Shown here one piece after another: positions 1 to 15,993 of a stretch of DNA of 64,000 bases. Made by a program: the position numbers and the translations under genes. The notes below the pieces were generated by a model. That model was not told the origin of the DNA and made no database searches. It saw only the letters and a program-made list of their open reading frames with translations. The stretch spans positions 102,424,001 to 102,488,000 of the forward strand of contig OX597822.1 of NCBI GenBank assembly GCA_951406725.2, given 5' to 3'. The stretch is from Octopus vulgaris (taxonomy: Eukaryota). Position 1 is the stretch's first letter. Every line of letters begins with the position of its first letter.

Positions 1-777
1 CCTTCCTTCAGGTGAAACTCTCGCAGCGTCCAACAACATCAGAGACCTGGGAGTAATTGTGGACAACAACATAAGCTGGGCCACTCATATAAACACCAAA
101 TGTGTTCCTGGATTCTCAGAACTTTCCAGTCGAGAGATATCCACACCATTATCCTTCTCTTCTCCACTTTTGCCCGACCCCACCTTGAATACTGTTGTCC
201 ACTGTGGTCTCCCCACACAATACAAGGTATCATAAAAGTTGAAGCACCTCAAAGGGCAATCACAAAAAAGATAGATGGCATGACAGGCCTCGACTATTGG
301 GGTCGACTAGAAAAGCTAAAACTCTATTCTCTCCAACGTTGTCGTGAGCGCTACATCATCTGCATGATGTGGAAAATATTCCATCAGCATTGCCCAAATG
401 ATGTTGGCATCACCTTTAAGGTACATCCAAGGCTTGGGCCCCGTGCCATCCGCCCAAAACAAAAATCGCACTCTCATCTCATAACAACAATACGGCACAA
501 TTATTTCACCTCAATTGGCCCCGCTCTCTTTAACATTACACCAAAACACAGTAAAACAGAAACTGACCCTATAGGGTTCAAGAAGTTTTTGGACAGATTC
601 CTTCAAGAAATCCCGGATAAACCCCCTACACCCGGATATGTCTCTGTAAACAATAACTCTCTACTTGAGTGGGCCATAGTGCCCAAATTCTGACTTGAAA
701 GACTTCACCAGGTGGTGCTATTAAGTTAGACATGGCCTGGGCCAATAATGGCCGAAACCTATCAAAGTATCAAAGTA
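1..777 (+). mobile_element. 3' fragment of CR1/L2-group LINE (family A, subfamily A1), running off the window edge
   Basis: ORF 100-693 encodes the LINE ORF2 C-terminus ([24 protein letters not shown]). It has a 19-bp deletion near position 100 relative to the copy at 12577-13631. The short 3' UTR ends in (TATCAAAG)2 followed by (TA)n. Confidence 0.93.
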
Positions 778-1377
778 TATATATATGTATATATATATGT
801 ATATATATGTATATATATATGTATATATATATGTATATATATGTATATATATATGTATATATATATGTATATATATGTATATATATATGTATATATATAT
901 ATATGTATGTATATATATATATATATATATATATATATATATATATATATGTATATATATATGTATATATATATGTATATATATATGTATATATATATGT
1001 ATATATATATATATATATATATATATATATATATATATATATATATATATGTATATATATATATTATATATATATATATATATATATATATATATATATA
1101 TATATATATATATATATATATATGTATATATATATATATGTATATATATATATGTATATATATATGTATATATATATATATATATATATATATATATATA
1201 TATATGTGTATATATATATATTGTATATATATATGTATATATATATATATGTATATATATATATATATATATATATATATATATATATATATATATATAT
1301 ATATATATATATATATATATATATATATATATATATATATATATATATATATATATATATATATATATATATATATA
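778..1377. repeat. (TA)n microsatellite, about 600 bp
   Basis: Direct reading; occasional TG interruptions. Confidence 0.99.
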
Positions 1378-1459
1378 GGTCCCGGGTTGAGTCGGGGTTA
1401 ACCACAGTCAATAAGGTACTCAATACATAGCAGAGTAAATTAATTTATTTTATAGAAGG

Positions 1460-1510
1460 AGCTTCTACAGGACTAGAACTGTTTCATTCAAAAGAAATCA
1501 TCAGGAAGCT
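1460..1510 (-). ncRNA. Type I hammerhead ribozyme motif, canonical core
   Basis: Minus strand reads AGCUUC-CUGAUGA-UUUC UUUU GAAU-GAAA-CAG UUCUAGUC CUG-UA-GAAGCU: 6-bp stem I, short stem II, stem III, and a GUA cleavage triplet. Confidence 0.75.
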
Positions 1511-1744
1511 AGTAGACAAGAGTTGTTTTGGCATTTATACATTTAGGCAGGTTTAAATGGGTGGTGGTGGGGGACTTTTTGGGGGGGTAGGCATGGCGCA
1601 AAACTGTCATTATAAGGGGAGTGGTCAAAGGAATCGTTGGTAAAGTAGATAATAGAATAAATAAAAGAATAAAAAATAAAATAAAAAGATAAAAAAATAT
1701 AAATAGAAAAATAGGGTTTTAGGTAAGTAGGGAGACTCTGACTT

Positions 1745-3690
1745 GTACATCTACATATATATATATACACATATATACACCCGCATATTCACATATATCT
1801 ATACATATACATACATACCCACATATACATACATATATATATACATACATACACATACATATACATATATATATACATACATATACATACATACATACAC
1901 ATACCCATGTATGTACACACAGTTACACATATACATACATATATGTATACCCACTCGCACAAATATATACAAATGCATATACATGCACACACATACACAC
2001 ACATTTTTATTCTCTTATTTTAATTTTATTATTACTGCTTTTTGTTTATATCTTTATTTTTATTTTTATCTTGACCGGTCAATCGGTCTCAAGGGATGAT
2101 ATAAAGATTCCGTTTATCTGTCTACGAAGAAGAACGCAGGCACTCACCCACTCCCACACACTCACACGTACACACACGTACGTGTTATATTCATACACGC
2201 ATACATCTACATACATTCACGTATATTCACATACACGCATACACATACATACCTCAACACACTCACAGAAGACTAGTCCATACATATACACTAATTAATA
2301 TATATATACACATATACATATACACATACATACACATACATACATATACATACACATATACATATATATATATACATATATACTCATATACATATACATA
2401 CACATATACACTCATACATATATACACACACACATACATATACATATACATATACATATATATATATATATATATAAAACGGGATACATGCATACTCAAC
2501 TAATAATAATAATAATAATAATAATAATGATAATAATAATAATAAAAATAATAAATATATATACGTGCAGTTACCCATTATACAAACGGATACATACATA
2601 TAAACATACCCATATATACCTATTTACACATATGTATATATACATACATACATACACACATAACTCTACATACCTACATATACATAAACACACAAGCGTA
2701 CATATATATATACATATATATATATGTATATATATGTATATATATATGTACGCTTGTGTATATATGTGTATATACATATACATACACATACACACACATA
2801 TATATACACATCCATATACACATACACACATACACACACATACACACACACATATATATATATATATATATATATATATATATATATATATATACATTTA
2901 CACACACATCTACACATATATATATACACATACACATACACACACATATACATATACATACATATATATATATACATATATATATCTTCTCTCTTCGCTC
3001 TTATACGCCATTTGGTCTCAACTCTCCCCCCCTCCTCATCTAACCCCCTCTCCCCCTCCTCACCTATCCGTCCCCCCCGACCCCTACTTCTTCAGTCCTT
3101 CATCCTTTCACCCCTACTCCCCTTCCCTTCTTCCCCCTCCCTCCTTCCCTCTTCCTCTTCCCTCTGCTCCTTCACTCCCCTTCTCTCTCCCCCTCTTTCC
3201 TCCTTCCTTCCCCTCCTCCTCCCCTTCCTTCTCCCCCTCCTCTTCTTCCCCTCCCCTCTTCTCCCCCCCTCTTCTCCTCACTACTCCTCTCTTCTCCCCC
3301 TCCCCCTCTTCTCCTCACTACACCACACGACTTTACACATCACATCATATATGATGTGCCATACTTATACATACACCAACTAATACATACTAATACGTAC
3401 TAATACATACTAATACATACTAATACATACACCAACCCTATACATACACACGTCCAGACCCCTCATACGCACTTATACTCTCTCATACACACACACTTAT
3501 ACATACTAATACGTACTAATACATACTAATACATACTAATACATACACCAACCCCATACATACGCCTGTCCAGACCTATCCTACGCACTAATACTCTCTC
3601 ATACACACACACACACACACCCTTATACATACTAATACATACACCAACCCTATACATACACACGTCCAGACCCCTCCTACGCACTAATAG
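1745..3690. repeat. Low-complexity tract: CA/TA-rich microsatellite, C/T polypyrimidine tract (about 2985-3320) and TACTAATACA-type short tandem repeats
   Basis: Direct reading. Part of 2470-2720 recurs at about 4200-4420. Confidence 0.85.
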
Positions 3691-13631: not shown

Positions 13632-13647
13632 CCACAAATTACAGTGC

Positions 13648-15062
13648 CATATATGTATATATATATGTATATATATATATATATGTATATATATATGTAT
13701 ATATATATATATATATATATATATATATATATATATATATATATATATATATATATATATATATATATATATATATATATATATATATATATATATATAA
13801 TATATATATATATATATATATATATATATATATATATATATATATATATATATATATATATATATATATATATATATATATATATATATATATATATATA
13901 TATATATATATATATATATATATATATATATATATATATATATATATATATATATATATATATATATATATATATATATATATATATATATATATATATA
14001 TATATATATATATATATATATATATATATATATATATATATATATATATATATATATATATATATATATATATATATATATATATATATATATATATATA
14101 TATATATATATATATATATATATATATATATATATATATATATATATATATATATATATATATATATGTATATATATATATATATATATATATATATATA
14201 TATATATATATATATATATATATATATATATATATATATGTATATATGTATATATATATATATATATATATATATATATATATATATATATATATATATA
14301 TATATATATATATATATATATATATATATATATATATATATATATATATATATATATATATATATATATATATATATATATATATATATATATATATATA
14401 TATATATATATATATATATATATATATATATATATATATATATATATATATATATATATATATATATATATATATATATATATATATATATATATATATA
14501 TATATATATATATATATATATATATATATATATATATATATATATATATATATATATATATATATATATATATATATATATATATATATATATATATTAT
14601 ATATATATATATATATATTATATATATATATGTATATATATATATATATATATATATATATATATATATATGTATGTATATATATATGTATATATATATA
14701 TATGTATATATATATGTATATATATATATGTATATATATATGTATATATATATATATATATATATATATGTATATATATATATATATATATATATATATA
14801 TATATATATATATATATATATATATATATATATATATATATATATATATATATATATATATATATATATATATATATATATATATATATATATATATGTA
14901 TATATATATATATATATATATATATATATATATATATATATATATATATATATATATATATATATATATATATATATATATATATATATGTATATATATA
15001 TATATATATATATATATATATATATATATATATATATATATATGTATATATATTTATATATA
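13648..15062. repeat. (TA)n microsatellite, about 1.4 kb
   Basis: Direct reading. Confidence 0.99.
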
Positions 15063-15067
15063 CACTG

Positions 15068-15440
15068 GAATACACTGGACCCGGAGGGATTGCAATCCCA
15101 GAGGCACAATCAGTGCGTGACCTGGGTATTCACATGAGTGATGACGCGACCTTTCATGTACATGTTGCTAAACTGACAATGAAAAGCAGACGGCTGGCTG
15201 GCTGGATTCTTAGAACCTTTAGAACAAGAAACTATGATGGTCCTCTGGAAGACACTTGTCCTAAGCCACTTTGACTATTGCTCTCAGCTATGGTCACCAT
15301 CCAGTGTCAAGTTGATCACAGAACTTGAGGCGATCCAACGAAGCTACATGAAGAAGATAGCCTCTGTGCAGCATACGAGCTACTGGGAGAGACTCAAGAG
15401 ATTAAAGCTCTATTCCCTGGAGCGTAGGCGAGAAAGATAT
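15068..15440 (+). mobile_element. Internal fragment of LINE family B, truncated at both ends
   Basis: Matches about 11656-12037 with an 8-bp deletion. Ends at GAAAGATAT, fused to (TA)n. Confidence 0.92.
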
Positions 15441-15993
15441 ATATATATATATATATATATATATATATATATATATATATATATATATATATGTATATAT
15501 ATGTATATATATATATGTATATATATGTATATATATATATATATGTATATATATATATGTATATATATATGTATATATATATATGTATATATATATATGT
15601 ATATATATATATTATATATATATATATATATATATATATATATATATATATATATATATATATATATATATATATATATATATATATATATATATATATA
15701 TATATATATATATATATATATATATATATATATATATATATATATATATATATATATATATATATATATATATATATATATATATATATATATATATATA
15801 TATATATATATATATATATATATATATATATATATATATGTATATATATTATATATATATATATATATGTATATATATGTATATATATATATATATATAT
15901 ATATATATATATATATATATATGTATATATATATATATATATATTTATATATATATATATATATATATATATATATATATATATATATATATA
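15441..15993. repeat. (TA)n microsatellite
   Basis: Direct reading. Confidence 0.99.

Follow-up and report, generated by a model that had tools for sequence, protein, structure and literature searches.

CR1-clade LINEs nested in (TA)n arrays of the Octopus vulgaris genome: a possible insertion bias towards a dinucleotide microsatellite

Introduction

Microsatellites serve as insertion sites for several long interspersed nuclear elements (LINEs), among them Waldo (ACAY), Mino (AC), Kibi (TC), Koshi (TTC) and Dong (TAA), and the specificity of these elements is thought to depend on endonuclease cleavage (PMC3812793); none of those listed targets (TA)n. Target-specific elements with an APE endonuclease have been described mainly in the R1 and Tx1 clades, not in CR1 (PMC4640811). 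A preference for (TA)n has been described for Naiads, a group of Penelope-like elements with members in Octopus spp., whose target-site duplications (TSDs) are obscured by the repeat (PMC8557442). Here we describe two LINE families, A and B, that lie in (TA)n arrays within a 64,000-nucleotide stretch of the Octopus vulgaris genome (contig OX597822.1, positions 102,424,001 to 102,488,000), referred to as the window and numbered from its first base. Like the microsatellite LINEs, A and B are inserted in a microsatellite, but where those established elements are specific for theirs, A and B show a possible preference, seen at one locus. They carry the CR1 label and belong to neither R1 nor Tx1, and their APE endonuclease and CR1 organisation are unlike the GIY-YIG endonuclease and pseudo-long-terminal-repeat (pLTR) structure of Naiad and Neptune (PMC8557442, in part).

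The reading we favour, to which we give about an even chance, takes A and B for young CR1-clade LINEs of octopus whose bias towards insertion in (TA)n is real, though probably soft; they would be known CR1 families with a plausible, if unproven, new target bias. No (TA)n-targeting CR1 is described in the literature searched; octopus entries in Repbase and Dfam, outside that scope, could already note one. If the reading is correct, CR1 elements would have come to home to (TA)n twice independently, and the non-targeting relatives at 40-48% identity would offer a natural comparison for the evolution of target choice, whether through ORF1, the endonuclease or pairing of the RNA tail. The abundance of (AT)n in coleoid genomes is a further question on which it would have a bearing.

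Families A and B and their junctions with (TA)n

The nest at positions 1-15993 holds five LINE pieces, three of family A (A1-A3) and two of family B (B1 and B2), and a B-like 3' remnant of about 33 bp (Table 1); the five pieces, two families and remnant of the original prediction were reproduced by self-BLAST and tblastn. The LINE pieces are separated by six (TA)n arrays of 89-1414 bp, and no further A or B piece was found in the window from 16 to 64 kb. TA-like sequence lies on the outer side of all ten junctions examined, and it does so in both orientations, as had been claimed (A3 is on the minus strand; A1, A2, B1 and B2 are on the plus strand). The left flank of the B-like remnant is mixed TA/CA. 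Within the nest, the copies with both sides visible are TA-flanked on both in five of five cases, one of them through a break. TA follows directly, with no spacer, on the tails of all three A copies (a unit of 8 or 10 bp that is present twice and ends in AAGTA), on the (AATC)7 tail of B1 and on the tail of the remnant, an arrangement that is not easily produced by deletion.

At its 5' end, A2 has TA on the outside, as predicted, but the contact runs through a 143-bp inverted copy of the element's own sequence; the inverted duplication as a whole (5093-5517) flanks a 139-bp A-rich loop. An 8-bp direct duplication with a short inverted piece marks the 5' junction of A3, and a short direct duplication beginning with TA marks that of B2. 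Compared with the full-length relative P0130, B1 begins at a point where the last ATA of the array serves, in frame, as an Ile codon of B (ATA microhomology). Short templated duplications at junctions are made by template jumps during target-primed reverse transcription (TPRT) and by polymerase-theta end joining alike. These 5' features fit real junctions of insertion or repair better than simple assembly joins.

Identity is 768/776 between A1 and A3, 904/1055 between A3 and A2, and 93% between B1 and B2; the copies of both families are young. ORF2 of A2 is open over 1007 codons and contains APE and reverse transcriptase (RT) motifs. The earlier description of the ORFs as largely intact and the insertions as young is upheld for youth, as the A1/A3 and A3/A2 comparisons attest, but it overstates intactness: A2 has a 108-bp in-frame deletion in ORF2 at 7414-7418, in the linker after APE (1585 bases, compared with 1693 in a contig of run X15), A1 has lost 19 bp and B2 8 bp. 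The lesion-free copies are B1 and A3 only, and both are 5'-truncated.

Identity and relatives

In both families ORF2 matches the Pfam models Exo_endo_phos_2 and RVT_1 above cut-off, and the two ORF2 proteins are 38% identical. Compared by eye over the aligned part, the RT of A2 is the same as that of O.sinensis_33_LINE, and the RT of B is near-identical to that of O.sinensis_104_LINE (supplement alignment of PMC10294476). These two clusters are listed as Jockey/CR1, with 69 and 21 RT members (Martelossi et al. 2023, Table S7, PMC10294476); the parts of that work drawn on here give no description of their target site, tail or ORF1. We label A and B as CR1 because the matching O. sinensis RT clusters carry that label in the published table, which supports CR1 within the CR1/L2 group originally proposed, and at the RT level both are already on record as octopus CR1 families. 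On these matches the host would be O. sinensis or a close relative. A Proto2 identity was rejected, since inspection by eye shows three Proto2 reference rows to be unlike A and B, whose matching rows carry the CR1 label. Other CR1 features are the predicted 3' untranslated region (UTR) stem-loops, the short tandem-repeat tail in place of poly(A), and 5' truncation. The two predicted 3' hairpins have z values of -2.6 and -3.0 for A and -0.5 for B.

The best 120 homologues of A ORF2 are 40-48% identical to it. Near relatives of B stand at 89, 64 and 63% identity; a protein from Argonauta hians reaches 57%. In a sequence search of the PDB, matches were limited to L1, R2 and group II intron RTs. 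The octopus consensus had no match in file 24 of a bivalve LINE library, the one part searched, and no octopus-derived contig was found by protein or 3' UTR pattern among viral contigs, GTDB genomes and 80 metagenome loci.

These 80 loci were kept from a metagenome scan in which 540 of 589 pattern matches were confirmed; in 60 of them the C-terminus is included and 60 nt or more follow the stop. The motif RR[ED]RY defines 16 same-lineage loci, a filter that missed L010, L017 and L018, which are lineage members by tree. Tails in which a unit of the ...AAGTA type is doubled are present in 9/16 RR[ED]RY loci and 11/44 others, usually with unique sequence next to it; in L001-L017 and others, the unit measures 7-11 bp, ends in AAGTA or similar, is doubled and is followed by a shortened last repeat. 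The marine RR[ED]RY CR1-like sub-lineage (e.g., P0006, which clusters with a Bolinopsis microptera protein, and loci L001-L029) shares with A this doubled unit and an ORF1 in which a CCCH finger precedes HLxGT[KR]R. Unlike A, it has non-TA 3' flanks and an ORF1 N-terminus that is Cys-rich and, by eye, PHD-like rather than Myb-like.

A quick RT tree was built from 79 rows, of which 38 are proteins and 41 are loci (43 of the 80 loci were entered, and 2 of these proved too short). It was midpoint-rooted, used no labelled references, and had branch support from the Shimodaira-Hasegawa-like approximate likelihood ratio test (SH-aLRT) only. A falls into a group of 37 rows with support 87 and B into one of 28 rows with support 98, each nearer to non-TA metagenome relatives than to the other. 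Taken together with the loci, this makes the ...AAGTA tail element-encoded and old, and the association with TA not ancestral.

Insertion bias, chance and rival explanations

As a null for TA flanks, a random point was scored for TA-like 20-mers on both sides. Outside the nest, where 8.4% of bases are TA-like, this gives p=0.044, a figure that favours preference. A number of observations weigh on the other side. With the LINEs removed, the nest is 65.5% TA-like and the same test gives p=0.50, with a local chance of 0.064 if four events are counted and 0.032 if five are, so that the within-nest figure leaves the local evidence modest; array lengths may, moreover, differ today from those at insertion. 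There is one locus, and the window was chosen post hoc for its TA pattern. TSD candidates of 13 bp for B1 and 18 bp for A3, with one mismatch each, are no better than chance, with random array points matching in 129/400 and 132/400 trials, and inference from TSDs was rejected. The claim that visible 3' junctions and most 5' junctions abut TA agrees with the ten junctions, but the supposed 3' junction of B2 is no element terminus: it is a break inside ORF2 at an ATAT microhomology, where homology to B1 stops. At least one TA contact therefore arose after insertion or in assembly, without TPRT. In the RT tree A and B are not sisters but fall in different sub-branches, and any TA preference therefore arose twice or was imposed by the host. 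Among the metagenome loci, a TA run of at least 12 within 400 nt of the 3' end was found in 0/16 RR[ED]RY loci and 0/44 others, in short-read contigs that under-represent long TA arrays; over all 80 loci, TA runs reach a maximum of 9. A short interspersed nuclear element (SINE) that shares the B-type 3' stem has a TA 5' flank in 0/5 copies and a 3' TA array in 1/5. Finally, five Penelope-like ends all adjoin TA at the 3' end (5/5), which fits a host-level cause.

Flank data from sequencing runs point both ways and carry no weight as a test of the bias. Half or more of the words of A2 are present in 20 runs (10 studies, 8 organism labels), and placement used 4 of 24 listed runs on positions 6650-9660, with 9632-9660 outside coverage. 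Raw reads placed on this interval numbered 0 for X23 and 23 for X24, and 8813 contigs of X1 were placed, with depth increasing toward the 3' end. The X1 loose-end consensuses come from two of the rows, 439 others not being included. Behind 9610 (50 contigs of a sister subfamily), the consensus runs into TATATA past the tail, with a weak agreement of 0.61; behind 9621 (54 contigs of A1/A3 type) it is a mere A/T mixture with an agreement of 0.58, which adds to the contrary observations above. Such loose ends are biased, as TA-flanked copies that are identical merge into one and records resembling human sequence are removed.

A stronger form of the favoured reading is possible, though we regard it as doubtful: A and B would be truly (TA)n-specific, the first such elements in the CR1 clade as far as the literature searched goes, and each would have gained this property on its own in a genome saturated with (AT)n. 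In A the route may have been a DNA-binding Myb/SANT domain in ORF1, which would have taken the place of the PHD-like domain present in relatives. Both families would in that case help to interrupt coleoid (AT)n arrays as well as to seed them.

Somewhat less probable, and in our judgement unlikely, is that the pattern belongs to the host, with long (TA)n arrays acting as abundant, break-prone and selectively neutral sites where any cDNA is captured or tolerated without an element-encoded preference, and where microhomology deletions bring arrays against element sequence. Two non-sister CR1 families, the Penelope-like ends and one SINE copy all lie in TA, the nest without its LINEs is about 65% TA-like, microhomologies (ATAT and ATA) are present at the B2 3' and B1 5' junctions, and the short templated duplications are equally a mark of polymerase-theta end joining. 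In squid, (AT)n makes up more than 10% of the Doryteuthis genome (PMC9068888, in part). Other elements of the window do not follow the pattern, however. Another CR1 family, with (ATT)n tails, is TA-flanked in 0/2 copies, and a tRNA-like SINE has TA on both sides in 1/9 BLAST hits and on one side in 1/9, three of the hits being one tandem; not every local retroelement therefore sits in TA. A pure 1309-bp array elsewhere in the window is free of insertions, and the five intact tails end exactly at TA. Contact with TA in the window is thus family-dependent, yet not unique to A and B. Were the host explanation right, the nest would be an ordinary transposable-element nest in fragile repeats, and the Myb-like plus CCCH architecture of A ORF1 would stay notable.

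It is improbable that the arrays were born from the elements, through RT stutter on the terminal TA of the ...AAGTA tail that seeds (TA)n, followed by array expansion and chance landing of later copies. The shortened last repeat after the doubled unit in relatives does indicate tail stutter, and microsatellites are known to originate from LINE tails (PMC3812793), but this origin leaves unexplained the AATC tail of B and the TA 5' flanks of A2, A3, B2 and the remnant, and the 1414-bp array contacts 5' ends only. An assembly artefact, in which separate loci were joined through TA arrays, is very improbable: arrays of 0.2-1.4 kb do lie between all pieces and B2 does end in a bare ATAT join, but the window has no N, the arrays are irregularly interrupted, A1 and A3 differ at 8/776 positions and by a deletion, the inverted arms at A2 differ at 2/143, and false joins within arrays would alter the clustering rather than the element-TA junctions.

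The target preference for (TA)n advanced in the original prediction keeps its place as the best reading, and a plausible one with TA at 10/10 junctions, qualified by the one locus, the high local TA content and the non-sister families.

Proposed mechanism of a soft (TA)n bias

For a soft insertion bias of A and B we infer each biochemical step as follows. The APE domain would nick at TpA steps or in unpaired TA DNA. The RNA would be held by ORF2p via the two 3' stem-loops while its tail pairs with the nicked TA primer, over two bases for A and one or two for B; more pairing would be available to A if transcription of a master copy inside an array read on into (UA)n. Either orientation would be possible, since TA and its reverse complement are identical. 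The 5' ends would be joined by microhomology and short template jumps, and arrays would later grow by slippage and lose adjoining DNA by microhomology deletion, as on the 3' side of B2. The bias would not be ancestral to the lineage, but acquired by A and by B each on its own in an (AT)n-rich host. A helping role for tail annealing, which had also been suggested, fares less well: the ...AAGTA tail is common to the whole lineage and in metagenome relatives stands next to non-TA flanks, so that the tail alone confers no TA targeting, and AATC pairs over only 1-2 nt with (TA)n.

ORF1 of family A

ORF1 of A2 contains two CCCH-type fingers followed by HLxGT[KR]R; the same combination occurs in the ORF1s of L002, L004, L005 and L007, and the A2 ORF1 is therefore the element's own. 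Its N-terminus (5446-5700) scores 21.6 bits with the Myb/SANT-like model PF13837, under the cut-off of 27. The best homologue of this segment, P0124 (E 3e-9), itself scores 31.7 bits with the model. Three of the six homologues pass the PF13837 cut-off, two of these being long multi-Myb proteins; a fourth scores far above cut-off and two have no Pfam match. The three short homologues P0124, P0126 and P0129 share a Myb/SANT-like domain. The structure model of the A2 domain has three helices with a predicted local distance difference test (pLDDT) score of 69, and Foldseek gave no match to it at E<=0.001; Atlas matches at 0.85-0.89 are a lead only. For full-length ORF1 no homologue was found at E<=0.001, and the Atlas whole-protein search was empty. 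On this evidence, A ORF1 probably combines a Myb/SANT-like domain with CCCH fingers. The words Myb, SANT and CCCH are absent from the consulted part of a survey of ORF1 in 448 Jockey-superfamily elements (PMC4120745). A role of A ORF1 in TA targeting is speculation.

Features of the window

Table 1. Coordinates of the LINE nest and of other features of the window.
Feature	Position	Strand	Description
A1	1..776	+	3' part of a family A CR1; subfamily common to A3; 19-bp internal deletion; tail a doubled 8-bp unit; 5' end beyond window
(TA)n array	777..1377	.	601 bp with G interruptions; borders the 3' ends of A1 and of a Penelope-like piece
Penelope-like terminal piece	1378..1530	-	Minimal hammerhead-like core; 3' end against TA array
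Second Penelope-like terminal piece	3690..3992 (start approximate)	+	Related to 60043..60249; 3' end against TA
B-like 3' remnant, ~33 bp	4422..4454 (approximate)	+	Last stem arm and AATC tail; left TA/CA-rich, right TA array
(TA)n array	4455..5094	.	640 bp
Inverted duplication of A2 5375-5517	5093..5235	-	141/143 identical; A2 5' junction with TA array
A2	5236..9642	+	Near full-length family A CR1: 5' UTR, ORF1, ORF2, 3' UTR, doubled 10-bp tail unit
A2 ORF1	5446..6657	+	403 aa; residues 9-73 Myb/SANT-like, then a poly-Q/T linker and a pair of CCCH-type fingers at about aa 265-283 and 318-336
A2 ORF2	6534..9557	+	Stop to stop, 1007 aa; APE and RT, catalytic motifs present
A2 3' UTR	9558..9642	+	Two adjacent stem-loops, then tail; like architecture predicted in B and a SINE
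(TA)n array	9643..9846	.	204 bp; 3' flank of A2, 5' flank of B1
B1	9847..12488	+	5'-truncated family B CR1: open ORF2 from end of APE, 3' UTR, (AATC)7 tail
Interrupted TA/TG spacer	12489..12577	.	89 bp; lies between the 3' ends of B1 and A3, which face each other
A3	12578..13648	-	5'-truncated family A copy, open frame
(TA)n array	13649..15062	.	1414 bp; borders the 5' ends of A3 and B2
B2	15063..15436	+	Internal family B fragment, 93% to B1
(TA)n array	15437..15993	.	557 bp
tRNA-like SINE	20747..21960; 24309..24546; 42250..42472; 48478..48716; 53822..54340
SINE with B-type stem	27155..27227	-
SINE with B-type stem	29661..30075	-
SINE with B-type stem	47659..48047; 57106..57161; 57661..58079
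Penelope-like repeats	30688..30785; 31117..31311; 60043..60249
Dispersed tandem-unit family	31501..31705; 35119..35399; 42122..42251; 42987..43180; 44477..44747
CR1 with (ATT)n tail	45702..46139	+	3' fragment
CR1 with (ATT)n tail	48767..49474	-	3' fragment
DUF229 ORF	49585..51555	+	Single ORF, 656 codons
Decayed RT fragment	56379..56963	-	Followed by PHD-like Cys cluster
(TA)n array	62137..63445		1309 bp, perfect and uninterrupted, no insertion

The two (ATT)n-tailed CR1 fragments are 98.6% identical and lie in opposite orientation around a 2.6-kb interval. One copy of the tRNA-like SINE lies within a TA array; three make up a 184-bp tandem. The SINE with the B-type stem is about 400 bp long, and its 3' end shares the first stem and the two-hairpin fold with A and B; from this likeness it was likely mobilised by a related CR1, and since its tail is unlike those of A and B, the partner may be a third family.

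The five short Penelope-like repeats, which we take to be such from their motifs, mostly contain what is presumably a minimal hammerhead-like core. TA borders the repeat at 30688 immediately on either side, an array lies about 20 bp upstream of another repeat, and three of the five are outside the nest. No Rfam model, hammerhead included, matched at its gathering score in the window; the 77 Rfam E-value matches in 1300-4100 are all under gathering scores and mostly concern miRNA models on TA-rich sequence.

The decayed RT fragment, presumably RTE-like, is followed by a PHD-like Cys cluster. The only host-like gene noticed in the window is the ORF with a DUF229 match of 439.6 bits and a sulfatase-like fold. 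A dispersed family built of 62-67-bp tandem units recurs at five positions between 31501 and 44747.

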